This document shows, in pieces, positions 1-26,706 of a stretch of DNA of 34,222 nt (position 1 is the first letter of the stretch; each line of letters starts with the position of its first letter). This stretch comes from Candidatus Deferrimicrobiaceae bacterium (GTDB lineage: Bacteria > Desulfobacterota > Deferrimicrobia > Deferrimicrobiales > Deferrimicrobiaceae): contig JBFFGP010000001.1 of the NCBI GenBank assembly GCA_041557435.1, positions 1 to 34,222 on the forward strand. The letters run 5' to 3'. The position numbers and the translations under genes were made by a program. A model generated the notes under the pieces. The model ran no database searches. It worked only from the letters and a program-made list of their open reading frames with translations, and was not told the DNA's origin.

Positions 1-44
1 CTGCGCCGGCAAGTAAGGACCCGGGGCGATGCGTGGGGGAGTCC

Positions 45-146
45 GCGAGGCGGCCTGTGGAGCGAGATCTCGGATTTCGCGAGCGGAACCGGCAGCGAGC
101 GGGCGAAGATCGCGAGCGTAGCCGAGGGGACCTCCCCCCGCGAGCC
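45..146. repeat. Periodic GCGAG motif array (starts at 45, 62, 79, 95, 112 and 140; spacing 17, 17, 16, 17 nt) in a ~320-nt non-coding leader
   Basis: Read directly from the sequence. A perfect 10-bp palindrome CGAGATCTCG lies at 63-72. No credible ORF covers 17-334 on either strand. Confidence 0.5.
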
Positions 147-334
147 AGGGTCCTTTTTCCCTCCCCAAGGACCTCAGGGAAGCGCTGACCGGGCAGGAGT
201 GACGGTCGCAACCGCCGGGACCGGCTCCGCATTCTCGGAGGGGGCCTTTGCTTCATGGCTTGCCTTGCGATTCACCCGCACGGCTGCGCCCCGTCGTGTG
301 CCGCATTCCCGGGAAATTGTTGTAGAATCATCTC

Positions 335-1102
335 GTGCCTCCTATGGGAACGAGGAAACGGTTAGCCGACCTCGGTGCGGTTGCGTCGGGCCTTGCCCAC
401 GAGATCCGCAATCCGTTGAATTCCCTCTACATCAACAGCCAGATTCTCGCGGAGATGCTCGCCGCGCTGCCGGAAGGGGCCACGGACAGGAAGGAAGAGC
501 TCCTTTCCCTCGCCCGGACCAACATGAAGGTCACCCAGCGCCTGAATGACATCCTTTCCGAGTTCCTGCGGTTTGCCCGTCCGACGGCGATGGAGTTCGT
601 TGTGGCGGATTTGAACCGGGTCGTCGCCGACACTCTCCGGTTCCTCGAGGTCGACTTCACGCACCGGGGAATCGAACTTGACGTCTCCTTCCACCCGGAA
701 CCGCTCCCCCTCTTCGCCGATGAGAAACAGTTGCGGCAGGCGCTCCTCAACATCTTCCTCAACGCCGAGGAAGCGATGGACAAGGACCGGAAGATCATCA
801 AGGTGACGACGGGGTTCGAACGGGGACGGCCGTTCGTGCGTGTCGCCGACAATGGCCGGGGGATCTCCCGGTCGGACCGGAAGCAGATCTTCCAGCTCTT
901 TTTCTCCACCAAGAAAAACGGTACCGGTCTGGGACTTCCCATCATCCGGAAGATCGTGCGCGAGCACGGCGGGAAGGTCGGCATCCGCAGTCGGGAAGGA
1001 CTCGGGACGACGGTGACCCTTACTCTCCCTTCGGAAGAGCAATCCAAGGAGAGAATGCAACAGATGGCGGCGGGAAGGCCGCTTCCGGAGAAGGTCCGGT
1101 GA
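335..1102 (+). CDS. Sensor-less histidine kinase (DHp/HisKA plus HATPase_c only), NtrB/AtoS-like
   Basis: H-box GLAHEIRNPLNSL sits about 20 aa from the N-terminus. N-box LLNIFLNAEEAM, G1 DNGRGI and G2 GTGLGLPI are present. An in-frame TAG at 323-325 bounds the ORF, so the start is GTG 335 or ATG 344. The stop overlaps the next start (GTGA at 1099-1102). Confidence 0.82.
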   Translation: MPPMGTRKRLADLGAVASGLAHEIRNPLNSLYINSQILAEMLAALPEGATDRKEELLSLARTNMKVTQRLNDILSEFLRFARPTAMEFVVADLNRVVADTLRFLEVDFTHRGIELDVSFHPEPLPLFADEKQLRQALLNIFLNAEEAMDKDRKIIKVTTGFERGRPFVRVADNGRGISRSDRKQIFQLFFSTKKNGTGLGLPIIRKIVREHGGKVGIRSREGLGTTVTLTLPSEEQSKERMQQMAAGRPLPEKVR

Positions 1103-2484
1103 AAGAGAAGGCGAAAGTTCTCGTATTCGACGACGACACGGACAGCCTCTCGAGCATCGTTGCGGCTTTGCGGCGGGACGGGTTCGAGGTCCATCCCTTT
1201 TCCGACCCGAAGGAGGGGCTTTCCTATCTCGCCTCCGAGGGGGGAGACGTTGTGCTGACCGATCTCAAGATGCCGGGGATCACGGGGATGGATGTGGTCC
1301 ATCGCGTGGTGCAGGACAATCCGGCCGTTCCGGTCGTGGTCGTGACCGCCTTCGGCACCGTGGAGAGCGCGGTGGAGGCGATCCGGGCGGGGGCGTCCGA
1401 CTACCTCATGAAACCGGTGGGGATCCCGCAGTTGCGGGCCGCCGTCTTCAAGGCGACCAAGGAGCGGAGCAAGAACGTGGAGCTCGCGAAGAAGGACAGG
1501 GAGATAAAACGCCTGCGGGAGGAGAGAAAACGGAAACACGGCGTGGGGAGGATCATCGGCGATTCGAGGATGATGGAGGAGATGATCCGGAAAATCCACG
1601 TTGTCGCGCAGACCCGGATGAACGTCCTCATCCTGGGGGAAAGCGGAACGGGCAAGGAACTCGTGGCCCGGGCGATCCACGACGAAAGCCCGAGGTGGGA
1701 TAAGGCCTTCCTGCCGATCAATTGCGCGGCTATCCCTGAGAGTCTCCTCGAATCGGAGCTCTTTGGCCACGAGAAGGGTGCGTTCACCGGCGCGGTCGCC
1801 GCTCGGCAGGGGATGATGGAGATCGCGGAAGGGGGGACCCTGTTCCTCGACGAGGTCGGCGAAATGTCCCTCACGCTGCAGGCCAAGCTATTGCGGGCGA
1901 TCGAGCAGAAGGAAGTGATCCGGGTCGGCGGGTCGGAGGTGATCCGGGTGGATGTACGGATCATCGCGGCGACCAATCAGGATCTCAAGGCGAAAGTGGC
2001 GGGGAAGTCCTTCCGGGAGGACTTGTTCTATCGGCTGAACGTGTTTCCCATTACCGTGCCCCCTTTGCGGGATCGCCGCGAGGACATACCGAAGTTTGCC
2101 ATCCATTTCCTGAAGGAGATCGCACGGGAGAACGATGTTCCCCCCAAGAAATTGTCGGCCGGGGCGCGCATCGCCCTTCTCGCGTACCTGTGGCCGGGAA
2201 ATGTCCGGGAGTTGCGCAACGCCATGGAGACCGCCTCGCTGGTAGCCAGAGGAGAGGCGATCGAAGGGGAGGACCTTCCTCCGGAAATTCTCGAGAACAT
2301 CCTACCTCCCTCCCCTTCCGGGCCGATTCCGCTCCCCTCGTCCCGAACACTCGAGGATATCGAACGGGAGGCCATTCTGGCCGCTTTGGTGAAAACGGAC
2401 GGGAACAAGACACAAGCGGCGAAGATGCTCGGGATCGGGTTGCGCACCCTCCACAGGAAGGTCAAGGAGTACGGGATCTCATGA
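1099..2484 (+). CDS. Sigma-54-dependent response regulator (receiver + AAA+ EBP + Fis-type HTH), NtrC family
   Basis: Receiver with DDD...LTDLKMPG. Walker A GESGTGKE, GAFTGA loop (HEKGAFTGA), Walker B LFLDEVGE. C-terminal HTH GNKTQAAKMLGIGLRTLHRKVKEYGI. Confidence 0.92.
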   Translation: MKEKAKVLVFDDDTDSLSSIVAALRRDGFEVHPFSDPKEGLSYLASEGGDVVLTDLKMPGITGMDVVHRVVQDNPAVPVVVVTAFGTVESAVEAIRAGASDYLMKPVGIPQLRAAVFKATKERSKNVELAKKDREIKRLREERKRKHGVGRIIGDSRMMEEMIRKIHVVAQTRMNVLILGESGTGKELVARAIHDESPRWDKAFLPINCAAIPESLLESELFGHEKGAFTGAVAARQGMMEIAEGGTLFLDEVGEMSLTLQAKLLRAIEQKEVIRVGGSEVIRVDVRIIAATNQDLKAKVAGKSFREDLFYRLNVFPITVPPLRDRREDIPKFAIHFLKEIARENDVPPKKLSAGARIALLAYLWPGNVRELRNAMETASLVARGEAIEGEDLPPEILENILPPSPSGPIPLPSSRTLEDIEREAILAALVKTDGNKTQAAKMLGIGLRTLHRKVKEYGIS

Positions 2485-2532
2485 CCGGAGAAAGGCCCAC
2501 GATATCCCGTCCCCTCGATAGGAAAACGGCGA

Positions 2533-2583
2533 TGCCATTATGGCACTGTCGATGAAGCGGGATGCATGTCATTCTGGCATGCA
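2533..2583 (+). promoter_or_regulatory. Candidate enhancer (UAS) palindromes: TGCCAT-T-ATGGCA (2533-2545) and TGCATG-N9-CATGCA (2563-2583)
   Basis: Both inverted repeats were read directly. They lie about 90-140 nt upstream of the -24/-12-like element, and an AT-rich tract (about 2618-2660) sits in between. This is the classical EBP / DNA-bend / sigma-54 layout. Confidence 0.35.
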
Positions 2584-2665
2584 ATTTTTCCCTCCGCGTT
2601 TCCTTCCCCTATCCTCGTCAGAATAAAATAATAAAAACAATAATATAGGTTTAACACGCGAAGGG

Positions 2666-3091
2666 ATGTCCCTTGGCATGGATATTGATCTACTTAAGGC
2701 GCGGGAGGGGAGAGTGGCACGAAGGGTGGTACTGATAGCGGATGCGCAGGGGGATGACTGGACTCCCATGGCTCCCCTGCTGGGTGCCCTGTCCGATGCG
2801 GGGGCGATGACGGAGCTTTTCTCGGACTGCGCTGCGGGTTTGGTGAGTGCGGTCCGCGGGGGTACGGACCTCCTCGTCATAGACATGGATACGCCTTCGT
2901 TCGGCGGCCTGGACACGTTGGTCAAGATCGGGCGGATCGCATCGCGGGTCCCGGTTCTCCTCCTGTCCGCCGAGGACAGCAATGCGCGGCGGATGTGGGC
3001 CGTGGAGGTGGGCGTGCTGGGGTACGTCACCAAGCCGGTGGACGGGCAGGCGCTCGCGCGTTTCGTGGCGAAGGTGTTGAGAGGATATTAG
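2666..3091 (+). CDS. Stand-alone CheY-like receiver domain protein (alternative start GTG 2714)
   Basis: VVLIADAQGDD...LLVIDMDTPSFGGLD...VLLLSAE...YVTKP places Asp57-, Thr87(Ser)- and Lys109-equivalents correctly. The first Asp of the acidic pair is Ala. If the sigma-54 promoter at 2674 is real, the start must be GTG 2714. Confidence 0.7.
   Translation: MSLGMDIDLLKAREGRVARRVVLIADAQGDDWTPMAPLLGALSDAGAMTELFSDCAAGLVSAVRGGTDLLVIDMDTPSFGGLDTLVKIGRIASRVPVLLLSAEDSNARRMWAVEVGVLGYVTKPVDGQALARFVAKVLRGY
2674..2688 (+). promoter_or_regulatory. Sigma-54 -24/-12-like promoter TGGCAT-GGATA-TTGA
   Basis: Matches TGGCAC-N5-TTGC at GG (2675-2676) with correct spacing to TTG (2685-2687). The -12 C is replaced by A. 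It lies downstream of a sigma-54 EBP gene. An RBS GGGAGGGGAG (2703-2712) and an in-frame GTG (2714) follow. Confidence 0.45.
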
Positions 3092-3122
3092 AACATCATA
3101 AAGGAGAGAGGAGAAAAGGAAG

Positions 3123-5024
3123 ATGGCGAAAATCATCGGGATCGACCTCGGCACCACGAACTCGGCGGTGGCCGTGATGGAAGGCGGGGAGCCCAAGATC
3201 ATCATCAACGAGGAGGGAAGCCGGCTTACGCCTTCGGTGGTCGGCTTCGGCAAGGGGGGCGAGATCCTCGTTGGCCAGGTGGCCAAGCGGCAGGCGGTTC
3301 TGAACCCCGAGAACACCGTCTTCTCGATCAAGCGGTTCATGGGCCGCCGGTACGAGGAGGTAGCCGAGGAGATGAAGCTGGTCCCCTACAAGGTGATCAA
3401 GGATTCCAACCAGAAACCCGCGGTGGCGGCGGGAGGGAAGGAGTACACCCCGGAGCAGATCTCCGCCATGGTGCTGGGGAAGCTGAAAAAAGCCGCGGAG
3501 GCGTATCTGGGCGAGGCGGTGAAGAAAGCGGTCATCACGGTGCCGGCGTACTTCAACGACTCCCAGCGGCAAGCGACCAAGGACGCGGGTGCGATCGCGG
3601 GGCTGGAGGTCCTGCGGATCATCAACGAGCCGACGGCAGCGGCGCTCGCGTACGGCCTCGACAAGAAGAAAAACGAGCTGATCGCGGTCTTCGATTTCGG
3701 GGGGGGCACGTTCGATATCTCGATCCTCGAGGTGGGCGACAACGTCGTCGAGGTGAAGTCGACCAACGGGGATACGCACCTGGGTGGCGACAATATCGAC
3801 ACGCGGATCATCGAGTGGATCGTGACCGAATTCAAGAAGGACCAGGGGATCGACCTGTCCAAGGACCGAACGGCGCTGCAGAGGCTGAAGGAGGGGGCCG
3901 AGAAGGCGAAGATCGAGCTCTCCTCCGTGATGGAGACGGAGATCAGCCTCCCGTTCATCACCGCGGATGCGACGGGGCCCAAGCATCTCCAGTTGAAGCT
4001 CACGCGCAGCAAGCTGGAGCAGATGATCCAGGACATCCTCGACAGGACGCTCCGGCCTTGTGAACTGGCGATCCGGGACGCCGGGATCACCGTGGACAGG
4101 ATCGACGAGGTCGTCCTTGTCGGCGGTTCCACCCGGATTCCGAAGGTCGTCGAGATGGTGAAGGGCTTCTTCCGCCGGGAGCCGCACCAGGGAGTGAACC
4201 CCGACGAGGTGGTGGCGGCGGGCGCCGCCGTTCAGGCGGGCGTGTTAGGCGGAGAGGTGAAGGACCTGCTGCTCCTGGACGTAACCCCGCTGTCGCTCGG
4301 GATCGAGACGCTCGGGGGGGTGATGACGAAGCTCATCGAGAGGAACTCGACGATCCCGGTCCGAAAGAGCGAGATCTTCACGACGGCGGCCGACGGTCAG
4401 ACGAGCGTGGAGGTCCACGTCCTGCAAGGGGAGCGCGAGATGGCGTCCGCCAACCGGACCCTGGGAAGGTTCCACCTCGAGGGGATCCCGGCGGCACCAC
4501 GCGGAGTTCCCAAGATCGAGGTGAGCTTCGACATCGACGCGAACGGCATCCTCCACGTCAACGCGAAGGACACGGCGACCGGCAAGGAGCAGAAGATCAC
4601 GATCACGGCGTCCACCGGTCTCGCCAAGGATGACATCGATCGGATGGTCAAGGAGGCCGAGACGCACTCCGCCGAGGATCGGAAGCGCAAGGCCGTCATC
4701 GAGGCGCGCAACCAGCTCGACTCCCTCGTCTACAACACGGAGAAAACGCTCCGGGAGAACCGGGAGAAGCTGCCCTCCGAGCTTGCGACCGAGGTGGAGA
4801 CCGCCATCAACGAGGCGAAGGAGTCGATGAAGTCCGAGGACGAGACGGTGCTCAAGCAGGCCGCGGAGACGCTCATGCAGCGTTCTCACCGCCTCGCCGA
4901 GCACATGTACAAGGAGACGTCGTCCTCCGCCTCACAACCTCCTCCGGAAGGCGATGCGGAAGGCAAGGAGGGTGAGGGGGAGGTCGTCGACGCCGAGTAC
5001 GAGGACCCCGCCGCGAAGCAGTAG
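3123..5024 (+). CDS. dnaK: Molecular chaperone DnaK (Hsp70)
   Basis: [17 protein letters not shown] and VGGSTRIP signatures, full substrate-binding domain and lid, acidic C-terminus [25 protein letters not shown] lies upstream. Confidence 0.97.
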
Positions 5025-5123
5025 GAGCGGGGGAGTGGAAGGAACCGGGAATACGCCAAACGTACGATGGGCTCGACCCACTATCCGGCCGGGGAACCGG
5101 ACCGGGGGAAAGGAGGACACATC

Positions 5124-5573
5124 ATGACACTGATTCGTTGGACAGACCCATTTCGGGACGTCGCGGTCCTGCAGGATCGGATGAACCGGCTGTTTGGAGA
5201 CTTCCTCGAGCGTGCCAATCCGCAAGAGGAAGGACTGGGAACGGGCATCTGGATGCCCAATGTGGACATTCACGAAACGAAGGACGCCATCTGCGTCCGG
5301 GCGGAGCTTCCCGGCGTGGGCAAGGACGCCGTCAACGTGGAGGTCAAGGAGGGTGTCCTCACCCTGCGCGGGGAGCGCAAGTTCGAGAAGGATGTCCAGG
5401 AGGAGAATTACCACAGGATCGAGCGGTCCTATGGGACGTTCTACCGGTCCTTCTCGCTGCCCTCTTCGGTCAACGAGGAGAAGGTCTCCGCCAGGATGAA
5501 GGACGGCGTGCTGGAGGTGAACCTGCCCAAAAAGGAGCAGGCGAAGCCGAAGCAGATCGAGATAGCTGCGTAA
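5124..5573 (+). CDS. Small heat-shock protein, Hsp20/alpha-crystallin family (copy 1)
   Basis: Alpha-crystallin core: PNVDIHETKDAICVRAELPGV...LTLRGERK...ERSYGTFYRSFSLP...GVLEVNLPK. ATG 5124 is preceded by AGGAGGA (5111-5117). The ORF-track start at 5067 is rejected. Confidence 0.9.
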   Translation: MTLIRWTDPFRDVAVLQDRMNRLFGDFLERANPQEEGLGTGIWMPNVDIHETKDAICVRAELPGVGKDAVNVEVKEGVLTLRGERKFEKDVQEENYHRIERSYGTFYRSFSLPSSVNEEKVSARMKDGVLEVNLPKKEQAKPKQIEIAA

Positions 5574-5595
5574 CGGAATAGAAATATTGAAAAGT

Positions 5596-5627
5596 CGCCT
5601 CGGCCTCCTACACTGGAGGCCGAGGCG
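5596..5627 (+). promoter_or_regulatory. Perfect 13-bp stem-loop (CGCCTCGGCCTCC / GGAGGCCGAGGCG, loop TACACT) immediately 5' of the hsp20 copy-2 RBS
   Basis: Read directly. CCTCCTA (5604-5610) in the 5' arm is also complementary to TAGGAGG (5632-5638), the Shine-Dalgarno of the next gene. No U-tract follows the stem. Confidence 0.5.
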
Positions 5628-5644
5628 GGGATAGGAGGAGAACC

Positions 5645-6097
5645 ATGGCGATTGTACGCTGGCTGGACCCGTTTCGCGATTTGTCGGCAATCCAGGAAAG
5701 GATGAACCAAATTTTCGAGGATGCCCTGTCCCGCTCCCGAGGGAGAGACGAGGGGCTTAGGACGGGGATGTGGACCCCTGCAGTGGACATCTACGAGAAC
5801 AACGACCACGTCGTGGTCAAGGCGGAGCTTCCCGGTGTGGAGAAGGACCAGATCTCCGTGGAGGTCAAGGACGGGATCCTTTCGCTGCGCGGGGAGCGCA
5901 AGTTCGAGAAGGAGGTCAAGGAGGAGAGTTACCACCGGATCGAGCGGTCCTATGGGAGCTTTCAGCGTTCCTTCTCGTTGCCGGTTTCCGTGAACCAGGA
6001 CAAGGTGACCGCGCGGTTCCAGGACGGGGTCCTGGAGGTGAAACTCCCCAAGAGGGAGCAAGCCAAGCCGAAGCAGATCCATGTGGATGTGAAATAA
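5645..6097 (+). CDS. Small heat-shock protein, Hsp20/alpha-crystallin family (copy 2, tandem paralog)
   Basis: Same architecture as copy 1 (by eye roughly three-quarters aa identity). RBS AGGAGGAG is upstream of ATG 5645. Confidence 0.92.
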   Translation: MAIVRWLDPFRDLSAIQERMNQIFEDALSRSRGRDEGLRTGMWTPAVDIYENNDHVVVKAELPGVEKDQISVEVKDGILSLRGERKFEKEVKEESYHRIERSYGSFQRSFSLPVSVNQDKVTARFQDGVLEVKLPKREQAKPKQIHVDVK

Positions 6098-6169
6098 CCG
6101 CGGATTCGGGGTCCGGGGGGCGATACTGCTCCCCGGAGGTCTTTCCCGGGGAGGGTGGCCGTATCGGGG

Positions 6170-7162
6170 ATGGATCCCAGGAAGAACTATTACGAGGTGT
6201 TGGGCGTGTCGGAAAACGCCACCACGGACGAGATCCGGAAGGCGTTCCGGCGGCTGGCGAAGAAGTACCATCCCGACGTGAACCCCGGGGACAAGGCGGC
6301 GGAAGGCCGGTTCAAGGAGATCAACGAGGCGAACGAGGTCCTGGGCGGCGAAAAGAAGCGAGCGGAATACGACGCGGTCCGGAAAGGGGCCTTCACCGGG
6401 GGATTCGGGGGAGGGGGACCGTTCCGGGGACCGGGCGGCTCCGTGTACGACTCCGGGGGATATGGCCACGGGGAACATTTCGATCTCGGTGACATTTTCG
6501 GTGATCTGCTCCGGGGGAGCGGGTTCGCGCAGAACGCCTCGCGAGGGGCCGACCTCGCAATGGACCTTCCGGTGGATTTCCTCGACATGGCGAGGGGAAC
6601 GGAAAGGGACCTTCAGTACAGACGGCCCAGGGTTTGCCCGGCATGCGGGGGGACCGGCCGGTCGGGGCGTCGCGGGTGCCCGCAGTGCGGGGGAGCCGGC
6701 ACGACGGAGAAGGAAGAGCGGATCAAGGTCAAGATCCCCGCGGGGGCGAGGGACGGTTCCACGATCCGCGTGGCGCGCAAGGGAGGCGAGGGGATCGGCC
6801 CGGGAAAGAGCGGGGATCTCGTCATCCGTCTCCGGATGATCCCCCACCCGTACTTCCGCCGTGAAGGGAACAATGTCTATCTGGATGTTCCGGTCACCTA
6901 TTCCGAGGCGGTGAAGGGGGCGAAGATATCCGTGCCCACGATCGACGGAGAGGTGACGGTGTCGGTTCCGGCGGGTTCGTCGAGCGGCAGGAAGCTCCGG
7001 TTGCGGGGGAGAGGCGTCAAGGCGCCGGGGGCATCCTCGCGGGGCGACCAGTACGTGGTGTTGCATGTGGCTGTACCGAAAGAGCAATCCAGAGATTTTT
7101 TGTCGCTTATCGAGAAGCTCGCGGCATTCGAGGACCCGAATTTGCGAGGCGGGTGGAACTGA
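6170..7162 (+). CDS. dnaJ: DnaJ-class J-domain co-chaperone with a reduced (two-motif) zinc finger
   Basis: J domain NYYEVLGV...[13 protein letters not shown]-rich linker. Only two CxxCxGxG motifs ([16 protein letters not shown]). DnaJ C-terminal beta domains follow. ATG 6170 is preferred over GTG 6155. Confidence 0.85.
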
Positions 7163-7210
7163 TTTGGATATAATGGAATCAATACGCAAGAGAGGAGAGT
7201 GAATACGCGT

Positions 7211-8062
7211 ATGGGCAATACTTTGAAAACCGGGTTCCTGCTTGCCCTTCTAACGGTTCTGTTCGTCGCGATCGGGAGCTACGTTGGCGGCCAGGGAGGA
7301 ATGGTCATGGCGTTTGCCTTCGCGGTGCTCATGAACGCGGGGGCCTACTGGTTCTCCGACAAGATCGTACTCAAGATGTATCGCGCCCAGGAGGTATCCG
7401 AAGCGGAGGCGCCGCAGCTCCACGCCACGGTGCACAGGCTCGCAACGGCTGCTTCCCTGCCGATGCCGAAGGTCTATATTATCCCGACGGAATCCCCCAA
7501 CGCCTTCGCCACGGGGAGAAACCCGCAGCACGCCGCCGTCGCCGTGACGCAGGGGATCATGAAAGTTCTTACCCCCGACGAGCTGGAAGGGGTACTTGCC
7601 CACGAAATCGGGCACGTGAAGAACCGGGACATCCTTATCGGGACAATCGCCGCGACGCTTGCGGGGGCCATCATGATTCTGGCGCGGTTCGCCCAGTTCG
7701 CCGCGATCTTCGGGGGAGGAGGAAGGGACCGGGACGAGGGCGGTGGCGTCCTCGGTCTCATCGCGATGGCGATTCTTGCCCCGATCGGCGCGATGCTCGT
7801 CCAGATGGCGGTGTCCCGATCGCGGGAGTACCTGGCCGACGCGAGCGGCGCGAGGTTCTGCGGAAGGCCCGAATCGCTCGCCCGCGCGCTGGAGAAGATC
7901 GCGAGCGCCTCGAGACGCGCTCCCCTGAAGGCCTCGCCTGCAACCGCTCACATGTTTATCCTGAGCCCGCTGTCCGGCAAGGGAATGATGTCGCTGTTCA
8001 GCACGCACCCGCCCGTGGAGAAGAGGGTGGAACGACTGCGTGCGATGCGGGTGGCCGCCTGA
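7211..8062 (+). CDS. htpX: Membrane zinc metalloprotease HtpX (M48 family)
   Basis: [10 protein letters not shown] (HExxH), N-terminal TM helices, and an HtpX-like C-terminal region [17 protein letters not shown] 7211 follows GAGAGGAGAG. The ORF-track start is GTG 7199. Confidence 0.9.
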
Positions 8063-8105
8063 AAGCCCAGTCGCCGGAAGGCGGGAGAGGAGAGTCGGAA
8101 ACCTC

Positions 8106-10376
8106 ATGATGGAGATCTCGTTTTACCGGGAGAAGCTTTCCGAGTCCGGGCACCGGATGCTGAACTCCTCCATCGAGGAGTCGCAACGCCGCCACCACTA
8201 CTATCTCGGACTCGAGCACCTGTTCCTTGCCTTCGCGGAGCAGGAGAAGTCCGTATTTCGCGAGCTCATGGCGTCCGTGGGTTTGAACGTAGAGGCGGTG
8301 CTCTACTCGGTGAACGAGCACTTGAACATCTCCCGGCAGTACCTCGGAGTAGGGCTCAAGGTTCCCCCGGCGACGAAGCAGGTTTTCCGGGTGGCCTGGG
8401 AGACGGCGCAGAGGAACCGGAGGGCCCAGATCGACGCCGCGGACCTGTTCCTCGGGATCTTCCACGAGGTCCATTCGATACCCGCCCGGATTCTCAAGAA
8501 CTACGGGGTCGATCCTGCCGTCGCTCTTTCCCGTTTTTCGACCCAGTTGCGCAGTCGGGAGGAAAAGGTAGAGGAGTTTCGAAAGCGGTATGAGCTCCCC
8601 GCGAACCTGCGGACGTTCGGAGTGAACCTGAACCTTCTCGCACGGGAGGGGAAGATCCCGCCGATCGTCGGGCGGGACAGGGAGATAGACCGGATCATCG
8701 AGTACCTCTGCCACAAGGACCGAAGCAACTCGGTGATGATCGTCGGAGACCCCGGGGTCGGCAAGACCGCGGTAGTGGAAGGTTTCGCCTTGCGGCTGGA
8801 ATACGAGCCGCACCGGGTTCCGGAGCGCCTGCGGGCCCACCAGATCGTCAATCTCCAGATGAACACGGTGGTTGCCGGCACGGTATTCCGCGGGATGTTC
8901 GAGGATCGCATCGAAAAGGTAATCGCCGAGGTCAGGGACCGAAAGAACCTGATCCTGTTCATCGACGAGGCCCACACTCTGATCGGGGCCGGCTCCGCGA
9001 TGGGCGTACCCTCCGACGCCGCGAACATCTTCAAGTCCACGCTCGCCCGGGGGGAGGTCCAGATCATCGGGGCCACTACCATGACCGAATTCAAGGAGAT
9101 CATCCAGGAGGATGAGGCTCTCTCTCGCCGGTTCCGCGTCGTCAAGATCGAGGAACCCACGGTGGAGGAGACGAGGGACATCCTGTTCGGGCTGAAGCCG
9201 AGGCTGGAGACCAATTACGGCGTGGAGATCACGGACGAGGCGATCGAGTTCGCTCTCTCCATGTCCGACCGGTACGCGCGGTCGCTCAGGCTGCCCGACA
9301 AGATCATCAACTGGGTCGACACGGCATGTGTCCGGGTCGAGATCAACGGAGACGAGGAGAAGACCGTCAGGAGCGAAGACGTCCTCGGAGTGGTTTCCGA
9401 GGAGACGAAGACTCCCGCGGACATCGTGCAGCGCGACGTCCTGGACCGGTTCCGGGATCTGGAGGAGAAGATCTCGAGGCGCCTGGTAGGCCAGCACGAG
9501 GCGATCCGGGCCGTAGGGAAGACGCTGCGGCTGAACAAGGGCCCCCTCAAGGAGAATGTCTACCGGCCGGACGGCGTGCTGCTGTTCCTCGGCCCCACGG
9601 GAGTCGGGAAAACGGAGATGGCGAAGGCGCTCACGGAGTACCTGTTCGGCGACGATCGCCACATGGTCCGCGTGGACATGTCCGAGTACCGGGACGGGGC
9701 TCTGGCCGTGGATAAGCTCATCGGGATGCCGCGGGGCATCGTGGGCTCCGAGAGGGGGGGGATTCTGACCAACCAGATGAGGGACAACCCCTATACCGTC
9801 GTCCTTCTCGATGAGATAGAGAAAGCGGACTCTTACGTGCACAACCTTTTCCTGCAGGTCTTCGACGAGGGATGGCTTACCGACGGCCGGGGAAAGAAAG
9901 TCTACTTCTCGGATGCGATCATCATCATGACGAGCAACCTGGGCTCGGAAGAACTCTCGAAACTGACGCGCCCCCTGGGATTTGCGACCGGCGCGGAAGA
10001 TTTCGAGCCGGTGAAGAAAAGCGTACTCAAGGCGGTGGAGAACCGGTTTACCCCCGAGTTCATCAACCGCCTGGACGACGTGATCGTCTTCTCCCCGCTC
10101 ACGTTCGACGAGGTCAAGCGGATCGCGGCGATCTACCTCGAGTCGATCGGGAAGTCGATGGCGGCATCGGGAAAGACGCTATCCTTTTCCGATGCTTCCC
10201 TCGATGCGCTGTCCGGAACGGGCATCAGCGTGAAGTACGGGGCCCGGTTTCTCAAGAGGCATATTGACGAGAAGGTGAAGATGCCGATCACGCTCAAGTG
10301 GAAGGAGTCCGACCGTTTCTACGTCGAGGTGGAAGGCGGGGAGGTGGTCGTAGTAGCAGAGGAGGTGCCCATCTGA
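8106..10376 (+). CDS. ClpA/ClpC-like double-AAA+ (Hsp100) ATPase without a ClpB-type middle domain
   Basis: Clp_N-like repeat. D1 Walker A GDPGVGKT and Walker B LFIDEAH. D2 Walker A GPTGVGKT and Walker B VLLDEIEKA. The D1-D2 linker is short. ATG 8106 follows GGAGAGGAGAG. Confidence 0.85.
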   Translation: MMEISFYREKLSESGHRMLNSSIEESQRRHHYYLGLEHLFLAFAEQEKSVFRELMASVGLNVEAVLYSVNEHLNISRQYLGVGLKVPPATKQVFRVAWETAQRNRRAQIDAADLFLGIFHEVHSIPARILKNYGVDPAVALSRFSTQLRSREEKVEEFRKRYELPANLRTFGVNLNLLAREGKIPPIVGRDREIDRIIEYLCHKDRSNSVMIVGDPGVGKTAVVEGFALRLEYEPHRVPERLRAHQIVNLQMNTVVAGTVFRGMFEDRIEKVIAEVRDRKNLILFIDEAHTLIGAGSAMGVPSDAANIFKSTLARGEVQIIGATTMTEFKEIIQEDEALSRRFRVVKIEEPTVEETRDILFGLKPRLETNYGVEITDEAIEFALSMSDRYARSLRLPDKIINWVDTACVRVEINGDEEKTVRSEDVLGVVSEETKTPADIVQRDVLDRFRDLEEKISRRLVGQHEAIRAVGKTLRLNKGPLKENVYRPDGVLLFLGPTGVGKTEMAKALTEYLFGDDRHMVRVDMSEYRDGALAVDKLIGMPRGIVGSERGGILTNQMRDNPYTVVLLDEIEKADSYVHNLFLQVFDEGWLTDGRGKKVYFSDAIIIMTSNLGSEELSKLTRPLGFATGAEDFEPVKKSVLKAVENRFTPEFINRLDDVIVFSPLTFDEVKRIAAIYLESIGKSMAASGKTLSFSDASLDALSGTGISVKYGARFLKRHIDEKVKMPITLKWKESDRFYVEVEGGEVVVVAEEVPI

Positions 10377-10846
10377 TGTCCGAACAGGAGAAGAAGGGGT
10401 TCAAGGTCGTCGACAGGCGCGGCATGGAGAAAGAGGAGCCGAAGCAGGAAAGAGCGGACCCTCCTCCGGAGCCGAAAGGCGATGTCGGGAACCTGTTGGA
10501 CCCCGGAAGTGTCCATGGTAAGAAAGGCCTGGAAGAAAAGAAATCACGCGTGGGAGGGCCGTCGTTCCTCGATCTCGTGATGTCGCTGCAGATGGGAGCG
10601 ATGGTCAACCTGGGGATGGTCCAGACCGAAGACGGCCGGCGATCCCCGACGAATCTCCCGGCAGCGAAAGATTCGATCGACCTTCTTGACGTCCTCAAGG
10701 AGAAGACGAAGGGAAACCTGACCGAGGAAGAATCGGGCATTCTCTCGGAGGGGCTGTATCACCTTCGGATGACGTACGTGGCGGCCGTCAAGGCGGGAGT
10801 GTCCGCTCCGAATGCGGACCCGGGCCAGGGAGGGAAGAAAACGTGA
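10376..10846 (+). CDS. Small conserved protein of unknown function, DUF1844-like
   Basis: N-terminal FKVVDRR, central FLDLVMSLQMGAMVNLG, C-terminal DLLDVLKEKTKGNLTEEE...LYHLRMTYV. From memory this matches PF08899 (DUF1844). The ATG overlaps the upstream stop (TGATG at 10374-10378) and its own stop overlaps the htrA GTG. Confidence 0.6.
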   Translation: MSEQEKKGFKVVDRRGMEKEEPKQERADPPPEPKGDVGNLLDPGSVHGKKGLEEKKSRVGGPSFLDLVMSLQMGAMVNLGMVQTEDGRRSPTNLPAAKDSIDLLDVLKEKTKGNLTEEESGILSEGLYHLRMTYVAAVKAGVSAPNADPGQGGKKT

Positions 10847-12324
10847 TCGGAAAGGGCAAGGTTGTCGTTCTCGTACTCGCGGCGGTGGCCGCGGGAGTGA
10901 TCCTATCGGCGACGTTGAACATGTCTCCCTTGACCAGCGCGTTCTGGGGGAGCGGGGAGAAGGAAAAGGGCGAAACGGTGGCGGCCGTCGCTCCCGTCAA
11001 GGCACCGGGCGAAATTCTCGCCATCGAGAGCATTCCCGCCCTCGCGAAGGAGGTGTCGCCTTCGGTCGTGAACATCAGCACGACGAAGGTGGTTCGGTCA
11101 CGCAGACCGCGTCTCCGTTCCCCCTTCCGACAGGACCCGTTCGAAGATTTCTTCAACAACTTCTTCGGGAACCTCCCCCGGGAACAGAAACGGAGAAGTC
11201 TGGGCTCCGGGTTCATCGTCTCCGATGACGGGTATATCCTCACCAACAACCACGTCGTAGAGAAAGCCGACGAAATCACGGTGATCCTGCTCGAGAAAGA
11301 GGAGTTTCAGGCGGAGGTGGTAGGCACCGACCCCAAGACCGACATCGCCCTCATCAAGATCAAGGCGGGAAATAAACTTCCGTTTGTCCATCTCGGCGAC
11401 TCGGAAGGATTGGAGATCGGCGAGTGGGTCTTGGCCATCGGGAACCCCTTCGGCCTCGGGCACACCGTCACGGCGGGAATCGTAAGCGCCAAGGGAAGAG
11501 TCATCGGATCCGGGCCGTACGATGATTTCATTCAGACCGACGCGTCGATCAACCCCGGGAACTCGGGAGGACCGCTGTTCAACATGAGGGGAGAAGTTGT
11601 CGGGATCAACACGGCGATCATCCAGGGGGGCCAGGGGATCGGATTTGCGACCCCCATCCGGTTGGCCAAATCGGTGCTCGGCCAGCTGAAGGAGAAGGGG
11701 AAAGTCACCCGCGGCTGGCTCGGCGTCTACATCCAGCGGCTGACCCCGGACATGGCGGAGACACTGAACGTCCCGGGGAAAAAGGGTGCCCTGGTCGCGG
11801 ACGTCACGAAGGACGGGCCGGCGCAAAAGGCGGGGATCCGGTCCGGGGATGTGATCGTCTCGTTTGACGGGAAGGAAGTCGAAGACGAGCACGACCTTCC
11901 CCAGATCGTCGCCTCCACAAAGCCAGGGAAGAAGGTGGAAGTGGTCGTGGTCCGAGAAGGCAAGGAGGAAAGGATTCCCTTGACCATCGCCGAGATGGAG
12001 CCGGATGACAAGGAGAAGCTCGCAGGCGGGCCGGACCTTTCGAAGGGGCTGGGACTCTCGGTCCAGGACATCACGCCGACTGTCGCTCGGCACATGGACA
12101 TCGAGAACCGGAAGGGCGTTCTGGTCTCCTCGGTCGAGCCCGGGAGCCCGGCGGATGATGCAGGCTTCCGCGAGGGCGACATCATCCGGGCGATCAACCG
12201 GGTATCCGTCAATAACTCCGAAGAATTCGAAAAACGGATCAAGGAGGGAAAGGACGACAAGACCGTCCTGTTCCTGGTGGAGCGGGGAGAGGGGCGGATT
12301 TTCCTTGCGTTGAAGAACCGGTAA
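10843..12324 (+). CDS. htrA: Periplasmic serine endoprotease HtrA/DegP (trypsin-like domain plus two PDZ domains)
   Basis: N-terminal hydrophobic anchor. Catalytic His (TNNHVV), Asp (DIALIKI) and Ser (GNSGGPL). Two PDZ-like segments. GTG start. Confidence 0.9.
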   Translation: MIGKGKVVVLVLAAVAAGVILSATLNMSPLTSAFWGSGEKEKGETVAAVAPVKAPGEILAIESIPALAKEVSPSVVNISTTKVVRSRRPRLRSPFRQDPFEDFFNNFFGNLPREQKRRSLGSGFIVSDDGYILTNNHVVEKADEITVILLEKEEFQAEVVGTDPKTDIALIKIKAGNKLPFVHLGDSEGLEIGEWVLAIGNPFGLGHTVTAGIVSAKGRVIGSGPYDDFIQTDASINPGNSGGPLFNMRGEVVGINTAIIQGGQGIGFATPIRLAKSVLGQLKEKGKVTRGWLGVYIQRLTPDMAETLNVPGKKGALVADVTKDGPAQKAGIRSGDVIVSFDGKEVEDEHDLPQIVASTKPGKKVEVVVVREGKEERIPLTIAEMEPDDKEKLAGGPDLSKGLGLSVQDITPTVARHMDIENRKGVLVSSVEPGSPADDAGFREGDIIRAINRVSVNNSEEFEKRIKEGKDDKTVLFLVERGEGRIFLALKNR

Positions 12325-12330
12325 CTCCGT

Positions 12331-12399
12331 GGGGGGGGACATTCCTATCTCAAGTTCCATGTTGAGGAGTGTCCCCCCCATTGCAGGAATGTCCCCCCG
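12331..12399. repeat. Palindromic repeat element built from GGGGACAYTCC units (three units: 12331-12345 forward, 12367-12379 reverse, 12387-12399 reverse)
   Basis: Read directly. Unit 1 can pair with unit 2 (about 20-bp imperfect stem, loop GTTCCATG) or with unit 3. It lies between the htrA stop and the clpB ATG. Confidence 0.6.
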
Positions 12400-12420
12400 A
12401 CCGCGCGGTAAGAATCTCCG

Positions 12421-15066
12421 ATGATTTCTCTGGACAAGCTCACGGTGAAAACGCAGGAGGCCCTGCAGGACGCCGTGCGCATCGCCTCGGAGGCGGGGCA
12501 CGCGCAGGTGGAGCCGGAACATCTCTTTGTCGCCCTGCTCCGGCAGGAAGGGGGAGTGGCGGCGGATCTTTTCACACGAGCAGGAGTGCCGGTCCAGCGT
12601 CTTCTGCCCGAGACGAATTCCCTGCTCGGCTCCTTCCCCAAGGTTTCGGGAGCCGTCAGTCGGGGGCTCTCCCCGCGGATGGAGCCCCTGTTTCAACGGG
12701 CGCTCTCGGAGGCGGACGCATTCCGGGACGAGTATCTCTCCGCCGAACACATCCTCCTCGGGATGACTTCCGAGCCGGGGGCCGTTGCGGACCTGCTCCG
12801 CCGGCATGGGGTGACGCGGGAGGGGCTTCTCACGGCTCTCACCTCCATCCGGGGGACGCAGCGGATCACGGATGAAAACCCCGAGGAGAAGTACCAGGCG
12901 CTCGAGAAGTACTGCCGGGACCTGACGGAATTGGCCCGCCGGGAAAAGCTCGATCCCGTCATCGGAAGGGACGACGAGATCCGGAGGGTGATCCAGGTTC
13001 TCTCCCGCCGGACGAAGAACAATCCCGTCCTGATCGGGGACCCGGGCGTGGGGAAGACGGCGATCGCCGAGGGGCTGGCGCAGCGCGTGGTGTCCGGCGA
13101 TATTCCCGAGGGTCTGCGGGACAAGCGGGTTCTCGCCCTGGACATGGGGGCGCTGATCGCCGGGGCGAAGTACCGCGGCGAGTTCGAGGACCGGCTCAAG
13201 GCGGTCCTTACGGAGATCGCCGCCGCGGAGGGGCGGGTGATCCTTTTCATCGACGAACTTCACACGCTTGTCGGGGCCGGGAAAGTGGAGGGGGCGATGG
13301 ACGCCTCCAACATGTTGAAACCCGCCCTTGCCAGGGGGGAACTGCGCTGCGTCGGGGCGACCACCCTGGACGAGTACCGCAAGTACGTGGAGAAGGACGC
13401 TGCGCTGGAGAGGCGGTTTCAGCCCGTTCTTGTGGAGGAGCCGTCGGTCGAGGATACGATTGCGATCCTGCGCGGTCTCAAGGGGAGGTACGAGGTCCAC
13501 CACGGGGTCCGGATCAAGGATTCGGCCCTCATCGCCGCCGCCACCCTGTCGAACCGGTATATCTCCGACAGGTTCCTTCCCGACAAGGCGATCGACCTGG
13601 TGGACGAGGCCGCGTCGAAGCTCAAGATCGAGATCGACTCCGTGCCCACCGAGATCGACGAGGTCGAGAGGAAGATCATCCAGCTGGAGATGGAAAAGCA
13701 GGCCCTGTCGAAGGAGACCGACGCCGCCTCGGGAACGCGCCTTGCCCGCCTCCAGGAAGAGCTGGCGGGGCTGAAGGGAAAGGCGACGGAGTACCGCTCC
13801 CTGTGGGAGGAGGAGAAAAAGTCCATCGGGAGGAGCCGCGAGATCAAAGAGAACATCGAGCGGGCCCTTTCGGAAATGCAGCGGGCCGAGCGGGAAGGAA
13901 ACCTCGGCAGGGCGTCGGAGCTCAAGTTCGGCGTCATCCCGGCACTGCAGCGGGAAGCGGAGGAGCTAAGCGGGGACACTCCCGTTTCACTCACCGGGGA
14001 CATTCCTGATTCATCTCCGGAATACGGGAGAGGAGTGTCTCCGCACAGGGAGCGGCTCCTCAAGGAGGAGGTGGACGAGGAAGACATCGCCCAGATCGTT
14101 TCGCGCTGGACCGGAATCCCGGTATCGAGGCTGGTCGAGGGGGAGATCGAGAAGCTCGTACGGATGGAGGAACGGCTGACCAAACGGGTTGTGGGACAGG
14201 ACGACGCCGTCCGGCTCGTCTCAAACGCCGTCCGCCGCGCCAAGTCGGGCTTGAAAGACCCCCGACGCCCTATCGGGTCTTTCCTGTTCATGGGTCCCAC
14301 CGGTGTTGGGAAAACGGAGCTGGCCCGTGCCCTGGCCCAGTTCCTCTTCGATGACGAGTCGGCGATGGTGCGCCTCGACATGTCCGAATACATGGAGAAG
14401 CACTCCGTGGCGCGGATGATCGGGGCTCCGCCCGGGTACGTGGGGTACGAGGAGGGGGGAGCGCTGACCGAGGCGGTGCGACGGAAGCCGTACACCGTGA
14501 TCCTGTTCGACGAGGTGGAGAAGGCACACCCCGACGTCTTCCACATCCTCCTGCAGATCCTTGAGGACGGGCGCCTGACCGACGGAAAGGGACGGACCGT
14601 CGATTTCCGGAATGCCGTTGTGGTCCTCACCTCGAACATCGGCTCCCACTGGATCCAGGAGCTCTCCGGCAAGGGAGAGGAGGTTGTCCGGAACAAGGTA
14701 ATGGAGGAACTCCGCCGCGAATTCCGTCCCGAGTTCCTGAACCGGCTGGACGAAATCGTCCTGTTCCGTTCCCTCGGGAGGGAGGAGTTGGCAATAATCA
14801 TCCTGATCATGCTTCGGGAGCTAAACGAAAGGCTCGCAGACAGGAAGATCTCGGTGACGCTCACCGATGCTGCCCGGGAGAGGCTCGCGGAGATCGGTTT
14901 CGATCCCACGTACGGGGCAAGGCCGCTGCGCCGCGCCATACAGAAGCATATTCAGGACCTCTTGGCGCTCCATATCCTCAAGGGGGATTTTCGCGAAGGG
15001 GAGTCCATCCTGATAGACGCGGATGGAAACTCCGGGTTTTCCTTCCGGAAATCGGATTCGCAGTGA
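12421..15066 (+). CDS. clpB: Disaggregase ClpB (Hsp104 family) with M-domain
   Basis: Clp_N. D1 GDPGVGKT / FIDELH with pore loop KYRGEFE. Long coiled-coil M-domain. D2 GPTGVGKT / LFDEVEKA with pore loop GYVGYEEGG. 881 aa. Confidence 0.96.
13972..14041. repeat. Second copy of the GGGGACAYTCC palindromic element, in frame inside clpB
   Basis: GGGGACACTCC (13972-13982), GGGGACATTCC (13996-14006), GGAATAC (partial) and GGAGTGTCTCC (14031-14041) are arranged as nested inverted repeats. The stretch encodes [24 protein letters not shown]. Confidence 0.55.
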
Positions 15067-26050: not shown

Positions 26051-26706
26051 ATCCGGAGAAACTCCCTTGCCCGCTCCCGGATCCCCGGGCCGCCGAACAG
26101 GTCCGAGATCACTGCGAATCCGGCTGCTCCCGCCCGGATCACCTCCCGGACGTTCTGCCGGGTGATCCCGGAAATGGCGATCGCGGGGAGGGAGACAGCT
26201 CCCGCCACCTCCGTGACAAGCGTCAGCCCCCCGGGCTCCCGAGTGTCGCTCTTGGTGGTCGTCGGGAAGATCGCTCCTACGCCGATATAGTCTGCCCCGT
26301 CCTGCTCCGCTCTCTTCGCATCGCCGACATTGTGCGTCGACGCTCCCAGGAGGAACCCCGGCGGGACCACCCTCCGTGCTTCCGCAAGGGGGAGATCGCC
26401 CTGCCCGAGATGGCACCCGTTAGCCTCCGCCATCAGGGCCGCATCGAGACGGTCGTTGACGATGAAGAGGGCCCCGACTTTTTCGCAGATCCCGGCAAGC
26501 CGCCGGGCCCGAAAGAACATCTCCCGGGGGGAGGCTTTTTTGTCCCGGTACTGGATGATCCGGCATCCTCCCGCTAACGCCTCCGAGAGGGCTATTTCCA
26601 GCTCCTCTTCGGGGTCTTTCGCTTCGAGGGCGATTACGGTGGGGTCCAGGATTCCGTAGAGCCCTTCGATCCGGGGGGTTGGAATGACGGCACGATTCCC
26701 GTTCAT
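26023..26706 (-). CDS. thiE: Thiamine-phosphate synthase
   Basis: LYGILDP...GGCRIIQYRDK...FIVNDR.D.A......G.HLGQ.DLP...GAS.H...GADYIGVG.IF.T.TK. Confidence 0.9.
   Translation of the reverse strand: MNGNRAVIPTPRIEGLYGILDPTVIALEAKDPEEELEIALSEALAGGCRIIQYRDKKASPREMFFRARRLAGICEKVGALFIVNDRLDAALMAEANGCHLGQGDLPLAEARRVVPPGFLLGASTHNVGDAKRAEQDGADYIGVGAIFPTTTKSDTREPGGLTLVTEVAGAVSLPAIAISGITRQNVREVIRAGAAGFAVISDLFGGPGIRERAREFLRIWEEEKDRR

Follow-up and report, generated by a model that had tools for sequence, protein, structure and literature searches.

Within a stretch of 34,222 nucleotides (nt) from a Candidatus Deferrimicrobiaceae bacterium (contig JBFFGP010000001.1; we refer to the whole stretch as the window), the genes of a histidine kinase and of an NtrC-type enhancer-binding protein (EBP, also called the activator below) stand at the head of a cluster of chaperone and protease genes. 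Our central finding is a conserved sigma-54-type promoter, with an enhancer upstream of it, between this regulatory pair and the chaperone genes. On this evidence the first operon of the cluster, which encodes a stand-alone receiver protein (REC), DnaK, two small heat-shock proteins (sHSPs) and a J-protein, is probably controlled by sigma-54 and the two-component system. The best reading of the locus is one sigma-54-driven operon from REC to the J-protein, with read-through and additional inputs for the genes from htpX to htrA and for clpB. The block as a whole is best explained as a core cytoplasmic and envelope proteostasis locus of the Deferrimicrobiota, the candidate phylum, formerly MBNT15, in which NCBI taxonomy places the family (PMC9386147). 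Because the promoter was compared over 15 genomes, the case for it is much stronger than a match in a single sequence could make it.

The promoter and enhancer module

The module lies between the EBP gene and the REC gene. The initial annotation had given this gap as 229 nt, which is right when REC starts at GTG 2714, a start that has the ribosome-binding site (RBS) GGGAGG and is kept in the relatives. The gap as a whole is poorly conserved, with a mean column identity of 63-74% that falls far lower outside a few blocks. The -24/-12-like element that had been noted in it is located at 2674-2689 on the + strand (TGGCATGGATATTGAT), with a predicted transcription start at about 2700. Each of the 15 genomes has [TCG]GGCAYGG-N3-TTG a single time in the locus, 40-45 nt ahead of the first gene, and TGGCAY-N5-TTG has one match in the window versus 0.22 expected. 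The element follows the sigma-54 consensus TGGCACG-N4-TTGCW in exact register, save for the C at -12; its GG, its spacing and its TTG are kept in every one of the 15 genomes. The exact consensus TGGC-N8-TGC had returned two matches only, both in coding regions, and therefore the pattern was relaxed and the genomes were compared.

Upstream of the promoter are two dyads of the form TGYCA-N3-TGGCR, a distal one at 2533-2545 (+, TGCCATTATGGCA; dyad 1) and a proximal one at 2567-2579 (+, TGTCATTCTGGCA; dyad 2). Taking position 2688 as -12, both for the prediction of the start and for the enhancer distances, the dyads are centred near -161 and -127. They are found 141-144 and 107-110 nt 5' of the -24 element in 14 of the 15 genomes, and the intervening sequence is divergent. 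Within the window the dyad pattern occurs only at 2533 and 2567 (3 matches counted over both strands, versus 0.14 expected), and among the Deferrimicrobiota loci compared at that stage it is restricted to the EBP-REC gap. An AT-rich tract between the dyads and the promoter holds a site that resembles those of integration host factor (IHF), at 2635-2647 (+, AAACAATAATATA), near -59. This site fits 6-8 of the 9 specified positions of the consensus WATCAANNNNTTR, and it begins exactly 39 nt 5' of TGGCA in 12 of 13 genomes. Enhancer dyads, an IHF bend and a -24/-12 element make up the layout that textbooks give for an enhancer-dependent sigma-54 promoter. The architecture can be read directly in the gap; from it we infer both the binding of the EBP, IHF and sigma-54 at these sites and the function of the IHF-like site.

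Two further candidates in the same gap were rejected. The sequence TGGCATGCAATTTTTC at 2576, considered as a promoter, turned out to be dyad 2's right half with a T-run after it. At 2563-2583 a hairpin resembles a terminator, but the relatives do not keep it as one.

Between REC and dnaK there is no promoter-like conservation: the gap is 18-45 nt long and contains only a Shine-Dalgarno sequence (SD). DnaK would therefore depend on the promoter upstream. The classical heat-shock operators had been reported missing, and indeed neither CIRCE (controlling inverted repeat of chaperone expression) nor HAIR (HspR-associated inverted repeat) sites were found in any gap of the cluster, even with up to 3 mismatches allowed. 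Sigma-32-type matches occur at chance level only, none of them in a cluster gap, and the genes grpE, hrcA and rpoH are, as had also been noted, not among the annotated open reading frames (ORFs) of the window.

Conservation of the module and of the gene block

We scanned the activator against one genome per GTDB species. Seven close relatives, with 86-89% activator identity, are labelled Candidatus Deferrimicrobiaceae or 'Deltaproteobacteria bacterium', and all seven have the same gene order from the kinase to HtrA or ClpB. The synteny search proposed in the initial annotation thus gave a positive answer: the order recurs in 14 other Deferrimicrobiota genomes and in 38 metagenome contigs, and the same block surrounds activator homologues of 68-73% identity (L045-L049; the L numbers are our designations for related loci) and DUF1844 homologues of 55-60% identity (L052, L053). 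The clpB gene lies 3' of htrA in L001, L002, L007, L046, L047, L052 and L053, L052 shares the downstream housekeeping genes of the window, and the number of sHSP genes per locus ranges from one to three. Since the block is present across divergent Deferrimicrobiota genomes, we regard it as a vertically inherited feature of the phylum and not as a mobile island. Distant EBP homologues (at most 46% identity; Poribacteria, Planctomycetota and Bacteroidota; L008-L044) were discarded as candidates for the same system: within 10 kb of them there are no chaperone genes, and they have no promoter-plus-dyad module. These homologues gave no link to the regulon that has been predicted for planctomycetes.

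Rearranged loci are informative about which genes the module serves. In L048 a DUF3467 gene has been inserted between the activator gene and the module, in L094 an insertion of 4.2 kb occupies the same place, and in both the module still adjoins the dnaK operon. In a sublineage that has no REC gene (66-67% activator identity; L068, L097, L061, L069, L073 and other metagenome contigs), the promoter GGCACGGGACTTGTT lies 97 nt 5' of dnaK. All three rearrangements leave the module directly 5' of the dnaK operon, which shows that the module belongs to this operon.

For a wider search, 241 million metagenome records were scanned with a query that joined the right half of dyad 1 to dyad 2 and to the promoter at their respective spacings. 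The 57 matches comprise 38 copies of this locus, 18 chance matches inside long ORFs of unrelated contigs, and L095. That is, no second Deferrimicrobiota target of the same geometry was found in these records; targets of other geometries would escape such a scan. With a single target in the scan, the activator therefore looks dedicated to this one locus.

The remaining match, at 11541-11690 of L095, belongs to an unrelated contig (GC 0.57) with a textbook-looking, intergenic sigma-54 promoter, TTGGCACGGGTATTGTA, similar TGCCA-N3-TGGCA dyads upstream, and small secreted proteins encoded downstream of the promoter. This type of dyad is therefore not unique to the Deferrimicrobiota.

For two of the relatives the genome or contig measures 2.32 and 2.04 Mb. 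Given genomes as small as about 2.0-2.3 Mb, it is plausible that the DnaK, ClpB, HtpX and HtrA of the cluster are the main ones of the organism. The supplements of the MBNT15 genome paper contain no entries for dnaK, grpE, hrcA, rpoH or rpoN.

The kinase-activator pair

The cluster had been described as headed by a histidine kinase and an activator with a GAFTGA motif, and both calls were borne out. The kinase gene (335-1102, +, 255 amino acids (aa)) encodes the Pfam domains HisKA and HATPase_c. The protein consists of a dimerization and histidine phosphotransfer (DHp) domain and a catalytic domain only, with about 10 residues ahead of the DHp helix and with neither a sensor nor a transmembrane (TM) region. 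Its H-box reads SGLAHEIRNP, and the N, G1, F and G2 boxes are present. The kinase reaches no NCBIfam equivalog cut-off, AtoS and ZraS being its best matches, and its relatives, of 240-260 aa, lack an input domain in every case.

The activator (1099-2484, +) has a receiver domain, a Sigma54_activat domain (PF00158, 8.9e-73) and an HTH_8 domain. Its Walker A motif is GESGTGKE, its GAFTGA is intact, the D, T and K residues of the receiver are present, and it scores below the equivalog cut-offs of AtoC, NtrC and ZraR. The start of the activator gene overlaps the stop codon of the kinase gene (GTGA). With the kinase boxes and with the acceptor Asp and the Lys of the receiver all present, the pair has the features expected of a two-component system, and phosphotransfer between the two proteins is predicted from their domain content.

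A -10-like hexamer, TAGAAT, is found at 323-328 (+), 6 nt 5' of the GTG of the kinase, for which we suggest a promoter role. The arrangement GTAGAATC-N3-6-TCGTG is kept in 9 of the 13 genomes searched first, and also in L052; the TAGAAT lies 6-7 nt ahead of the conserved GTG and there is no SD (window 323-337). The transcript of the kinase and activator genes is thus likely to be leaderless and to start from a constitutive promoter of the sigma-70 type.

The neighbourhood upstream of the kinase varies among relatives, with a lipoprotein gene as the usual neighbour: a protein of about 210 aa with a lipobox and no Pfam domain is encoded directly 5' of the kinase in L001, L003, L006, L007 and L045-L050. 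The window begins just after the corresponding position. A GC-rich element of about 135 nt, within window positions 18-165 (+), precedes the kinase; it pairs over its whole length and is followed by a U-run. Similar sequence is present at the same place in L006 and L002, and a different insert is present in L001 and L003. No Rfam match was found in window positions 1-340, and the folding energy of the 18-165 element is ordinary (z = -1.1).

The window encodes a second sigma-54 activator (REC, AAA+ and HTH_8 domains; 26703-28766, -); the genes of a PAS histidine kinase and of a dihydrouridine synthase lie upstream of it. The arrangement at 26703-30213 (-) resembles nifR3(dusB)-ntrB-ntrC, and the organism has several EBPs. 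The second EBP gene suggests that the organism uses sigma-54.

Genes of the cluster and their surroundings

The gene calls of the window were checked against Pfam and NCBIfam. All twelve genes of the cluster were confirmed, all on the + strand and in the order originally proposed, namely HK-EBP-REC-DnaK-sHSP-sHSP-J-HtpX-ClpA-like-DUF1844-HtrA-ClpB. Several starts were corrected by reading the sequence together with its relatives: besides the GTG of REC at 2714, sHSP1 starts at 5125, the J-protein at 6170, HtpX at 7211, the Clp ATPase at 8106 and DUF1844 at 10376. With these starts the intergenic gaps, first given as 0-96 nt where genes do not overlap, range from 0 to 100 nt. Three gene pairs overlap or abut, and the overlaps TGATG at 10374-10378 and GTGA at 10843-10846 are as originally reported.

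The first gene after the promoter (2714-3091) encodes a stand-alone receiver protein of 125 aa (Pfam Response_reg). Its acceptor Asp57 and its Lys107-Pro108 are invariant and the T/S87 equivalent varies (S, A, G or T); the protein has a 3-residue insertion in the beta1-alpha1 loop and is 26% identical to the receiver of the EBP. It could serve as a phosphate sink. Receiver proteins such as CpdR and RssB provide a precedent for protease adaptors, and by analogy REC could be an adaptor instead. Its absence from one sublineage shows that REC is not essential to the circuit.

DnaK (Hsp70; 3123-5024) scores 998.6 bits with NF001413, whose cut-off is 648. The two sHSPs match Pfam HSP20, sHSP1 (5125-5573) with 2.8e-24 and sHSP2 (5645-6097) with 3.1e-25, and the ATG of sHSP1 at 5125 has a conserved RBS, AAGGAGG. 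The J-protein (6170-7162; Pfam DnaJ and DnaJ_C) has a J-domain, a G/F region, two CxxCxGxG motifs only and the DnaJ C-terminal domain; its TIGR02349 score of 302 bits is under the cut-off of 377. HtpX (7211-8062) is a membrane M48 zinc protease that passes NF002826 with 378.7 bits against a cut-off of 369.

The gene at 8106-10376 encodes a two-ring Clp/Hsp100 ATPase of ClpA-like architecture, with an N-domain, D1 and D2, which falls below all NCBIfam cut-offs (593 bits versus 993 for the ClpA equivalog). Its best PDB matches are to ClpC, but the alignment skips the M-domain of ClpC; with Escherichia coli ClpA the protein aligns in one stretch from end to end. The segment RPLGFATG aligns with the FAGFGG loop of ClpC, and LGF is a putative ClpP-docking tripeptide. 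The ATPase thus combines two rings, an N-domain and an LGF with the absence of an M-domain. Against the ClpK/ClpG models NF033606 and NF033607 it reaches 497 and 472 bits, with a cut-off of 1900.

The DUF1844 protein (10376-10846; Pfam PF08899, 82 bits) is always encoded between the ClpA-like ATPase and HtrA, and its gene overlaps both neighbours (ATGA and GTGA), an arrangement that predicts translational coupling on both sides. The AlphaFold2 model is a confident three-helix bundle over residues 61-140, with a disordered N-terminus that contains a conserved KGFKVVD(K/R)RG. A fold search with this protein returned only generic three-helix bundles (E >0.3), which gives no support to the BAG-like or adaptor role that we had considered, and the literature searched held nothing on DUF1844 function. 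The cluster is completed by a serine protease of the HtrA/DegP type (10843-12324; Pfam Trypsin_2 and two PDZ domains) and by the disaggregase ClpB (12421-15066, 881 aa; Pfam Clp_N twice, AAA, AAA_lid_9, AAA_2 and ClpB_D2-small).

As had been noted, housekeeping genes follow the cluster: ispE, tRNA-Gln, prs, L25, pth, S6, ssb, S18, L9 and dnaB. The G+C content is 59-66% along the whole window, with no compositional island, and no mobility genes accompany the cluster. Two features of the downstream region are recorded here for their own sake. The DnaB helicase (20481-23132, +, 883 aa) contains an intein with a LAGLIDADG homing-endonuclease domain. A fluoride riboswitch is found at 30333-30395 (+), with 56 bits versus a gathering score of 34, and the ORF that follows it (30346-32184) encodes a dynamin-family GTPase domain where crcB or eriC-F would be usual.

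Elements inside the cluster

No canonical intrinsic terminator is present on the + strand inside the cluster, so that read-through is likely. Several of the gaps are nevertheless structured or conserved, beginning with the one between the two sHSP genes, where a GC-rich hairpin of 13 bp (5596-5627, +) has a minimum free energy (MFE) of -32.6 kcal/mol (z = -4.1). It has no U-tail and leaves the SD uncovered. A GC hairpin of other sequence occupies the same place in the relatives, and the alignment in the covariation test was poor. After sHSP2, an inverted repeat of 10 nt (6112-6137, +; 90% complementary) is followed by GGTCTTTCCC, and similar hairpins followed by TTTCT are found after sHSP2 in the relatives. 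This hairpin is a candidate weak terminator or attenuator.

The most conserved of these elements is an invariant 15-nt sequence, TATAATGGAATCAAT, at 7169-7183 (+), 6 nt past the stop codon of the J-protein and before htpX. Of the 13 genomes in which the gap is covered, 12 have it unchanged (including L001-L004, L006, L007, L045-L048 and L053), and L052 has one substitution; that is, it is more conserved than the sigma-54 promoter. It holds a perfect -10 hexamer, TATAAT, with no recognisable -35. The region can alternatively be read as GGAACTG-N17-TCAAT, which resembles promoters of extracytoplasmic function (ECF) sigma factors or sigma-E. The element may thus be an internal promoter, an ECF-type promoter, an operator or an RNA-level site for htpX and the genes that follow.

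In the htrA-clpB gap a three-arm alternative hairpin (12332-12398, +; MFE -42 kcal/mol, z = -2.6) is shared with L001: the arm 12332-12346 can pair with either 12365-12379 or 12385-12398. The same gap in other relatives holds an unrelated GC hairpin. In the window and in L001, clpB has no SD, and TAAGAAT lies 5 nt ahead of its ATG. Together, the invariant element and the structured gaps suggest further transcription units or processing.

Proposed mechanism and alternative explanations

We propose the following scheme. The kinase and activator genes would be transcribed separately, probably as a leaderless mRNA from the TAGAAT -10. The sensor-less kinase would phosphorylate the activator, as the domain content of both proteins suggests, and the activator would then bind both TGYCA-N3-TGGCR dyads. 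The IHF-like bend would deliver it to sigma-54 RNA polymerase, presumed to be bound at TGGCAYGG-N3-TTG(T/A/G), and ATP hydrolysis by the activator would open the promoter. The transcript would run from about 2700 through REC, dnaK, the two sHSP genes and the J gene, and part of the transcripts would probably continue into the genes of htpX, the ClpA-like ATPase, DUF1844, htrA and clpB. These downstream genes also have structured gaps and, in TATAATGGAATCAAT, at least one conserved element that belongs to them. To judge by the content of the operon, the inducer is most likely proteotoxic or heat stress. Sensing is probably indirect, as the kinase lacks an input domain. Feedback might run by either of two speculative routes: titration of DnaK and the J-protein off the kinase or the activator, or a phosphate sink formed by the co-induced stand-alone receiver.

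In its boldest form this scheme would make the module the master, and perhaps the only, heat-shock switch of the organism, one that replaces sigma-32 and HrcA and drives the sole DnaK, ClpB, HtpX and HtrA, with the kinase reading the titration of DnaK/J and the receiver serving as phosphate sink. If true, the DnaK-sigma-32 feedback loop would have its counterpart here in a two-component system. We consider it unlikely.

Several observations weigh against our reading of the locus. No genome has the consensus C at -12, where T, A or G stands instead; the mapped sigma-54 sites of Salmonella at pspA (TGGCACGCAAATTGTATT), STM0649.S (...TTTGATTA) and hydN also lack it (PMC3844500). In L053 the promoter is retained and the TGCCA dyads are gone. 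The AT-rich tract holds chance sigma-70-like hexamers, and basal sigma-70 transcription is possible. No rpoN is found among the annotated ORFs of the window, and this gene would lie outside it. Both the hairpins and the TATAAT element ahead of htpX speak for some independence, at the least, of the cluster's downstream half. What we say of the stress signal and of the two feedback steps is inferred. Finally, a sole dnaK in a genome of about 2 Mb would leave basal expression to be explained if its promoter were strictly activator-dependent.

Some of these observations would be accounted for if the -24/-12-like block were not a sigma-54 promoter at all, so that the cluster is transcribed by polymerase of the sigma-70 family and what the kinase-activator pair regulates is something else. 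Besides the missing C at -12 and the missing rpoN, such an explanation can draw on the resemblance of the block's TGGCA to a dyad half-site and on a sigma-70-like match at 2615-2644. The sigma-70-like hexamers, however, are not positionally conserved, and TTGGCA taken as a -35 has no -10 at 16-18 nt, whereas GGCAYGG-N3-TTG stands in exact sigma-54 register in 15 of 15 genomes, at fixed distances from the dyads, the IHF-like site and the start codon. The activator has its GAFTGA, the module goes with dnaK in the rearranged loci, and other targets with the module are absent from the metagenome scan. All of this makes such an explanation very unlikely. Somewhat less improbable, in our judgement, is that the sigma-54 system is real but responds to a cue of the kind known from ZraSR or AtoSC (envelope, metal or redox). 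The pair's best NCBIfam matches are indeed AtoS/AtoC and ZraS/ZraR, the cluster includes the envelope proteases HtpX and HtrA, and a lipoprotein gene is conserved 5' of the kinase gene in most relatives; but those scores are far under the equivalog cut-offs, the kinase has no periplasmic or TM part, and the genes right behind the promoter encode cytoplasmic chaperones (DnaK, sHSPs and J), and we therefore hold such a cue to be improbable.

How far the sigma-54 transcript extends is a separate question. The initial annotation had placed the whole regulon under sigma-54, that is, it read REC through clpB, 12.4 kb, as one sigma-54-dependent operon. The single strand, the gaps of 0-100 nt with three overlapping or abutting pairs, the lack of a canonical intrinsic terminator on the + strand and the retention of the block as a unit in all relatives speak for such an operon. 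These points have to be set against the invariant 15-nt element with its perfect TATAAT ahead of htpX, the hairpin followed by UCUUUC after sHSP2, the strong hairpins in the htrA-clpB gap, and a clpB that, in the window and in L001, lacks an SD and is preceded by TAAGAAT, 5 nt from its ATG. A single operon of this length is, in our view, doubtful: the earlier claim stands, at the strength given above, for REC-dnaK-sHSP-sHSP-J, and is not sustained from htpX onward. The suggested kinship with the heat-resistance islands of gamma-proteobacteria, the transmissible locus of stress tolerance (tLST) or locus of heat resistance (LHR), proved superficial. Horizontal acquisition of such an island would account for the common theme of sHSPs, an extra Clp ATPase, an M48 protease and a DegP-type protease, but the ATPase, without an M-domain and with a ClpP loop, scores only 497 and 472 bits against the ClpK/ClpG cut-off of 1900, the GC content is uniform at 0.59-0.66, there are no mobility genes, and the same block occurs in divergent genomes of the phylum, in L052 with the same downstream housekeeping genes. 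We regard the island explanation as already refuted.

Comparison with known systems

The circuit had been called unusual, which the literature shows to be overstated: control by sigma-54 and an EBP has been described for HsfBA and lonD and for Chlamydia, and has been predicted elsewhere (PMC12316311). Sigma-54 control of heat-shock genes is thus rare but not unprecedented. In Myxococcus xanthus, the HsfB/HsfA phosphorelay activates the heat-shock gene lonD (Ueki & Inouye 2002, cited in PMC9109919). As far as that citing account goes, the likeness lies in a histidine kinase and an NtrC-like activator acting directly at a heat-shock or proteostasis gene, and there are three differences. HsfB is a hybrid kinase, whereas the kinase here is minimal (HisKA and HATPase_c) and the receiver is a separate gene in the target operon, absent in one sublineage; the HsfA regulon is scattered and includes secondary metabolites and pilY1, whereas the module here is found at a single locus; and the HsfBA target is a lon gene (lonD), whereas the target here is a multi-gene DnaK/sHSP/J operon.

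In Chlamydia trachomatis, sigma-54 acts with AtoS/AtoC (CtcB/CtcC) at the hrcA-grpE-dnaK operon (PMC8762339; Soules et al. 2020, PMC7482065). There, as proposed here from the sequence, sigma-54 and the EBP of a two-component system help to transcribe a dnaK operon. The chlamydial sigma-54 promoter, however, stands in tandem with a sigma-66 promoter under HrcA/CIRCE, while the present locus has no conserved CIRCE or sigma-70-type partner and, unlike Chlamydia, encodes its regulators beside the operon. A survey from 2025 predicts sigma-54 promoters for GroEL/ES, IbpA, GrpE, DnaJ and DnaK in Planctomycetota and Bacteroidota (PMC12316311). These are likewise chaperone genes behind -24/-12 promoters outside the Proteobacteria, but they come from genome-wide predictions with position-specific scoring matrices, with no activator or enhancer assigned, and from different phyla. 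In the present case activator, kinase, enhancer dyads and geometry have all been identified by comparison.

Salmonella has sigma-54 sites at pspA, which is activated by PspF, and at rpoH (PMC3844500). At pspA a stress-protective gene lies behind a sigma-54 promoter with the same TTGT variant at -12, and the rpoH site, TGGCACGGTTGTTGCT, is almost identical to the element of L001, TGGCACGGTTGTTGTT. PspF, in contrast, has no receiver and is under the control of PspA, and enterobacteria keep sigma-32 as their main heat-shock regulator. The enterobacterial ibpB gene, too, has a sigma-54 promoter.

With the tLST/LHR islands of gamma-proteobacteria, the block shares the theme of sHSPs, a Clp-family ATPase, an M48 protease and a DegP-type protease. 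Unlike them, it is not mobile, it lacks ClpK/ClpG, YfdX, HdeD, KefB and PsiE, and it contains a canonical DnaK and ClpB. ZraSR and AtoSC of E. coli are the best-scoring curated families for kinase and activator, and the domain order of the activator is the same, but the scores are far under the equivalog cut-offs (186 versus 646, 171 versus 479, 449 versus 714 and 393 versus 760), and ZraS and AtoS are membrane sensors, whereas the kinase here is soluble and sensor-less.

In our literature search we found no paper that describes this locus. What is new relative to the systems above is the sensor-less kinase and one enhancer module that looks dedicated to the locus. The locus also differs in that kinase and activator lie beside an apparently single target, with an enhancer geometry that is phylum-wide; in that, in most lineages, the target operon opens with the receiver gene; and in that DnaK, the sHSPs, J, HtpX, the ClpA-like ATPase, DUF1844, HtrA and ClpB are united in one chromosomal block.

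Implications

Heat-shock control is usually explained by sigma-32, HrcA, HspR or CtsR. Sigma-54 control of chaperones has so far been a matter of single genes or bulk predictions, in which activator, sensor and enhancer were not tied together. Here the parts stand side by side, and their geometry is conserved over a candidate phylum with genomes of about 2.0-2.3 Mb. The organisms are uncultured, and the promoter and enhancer pair is ready for reconstitution. The locus further links DUF1844 and a Clp ATPase without an M-domain to proteostasis. Thus, it provides a compact, testable model of a two-component system that, without a sensor domain, would read protein-folding stress.

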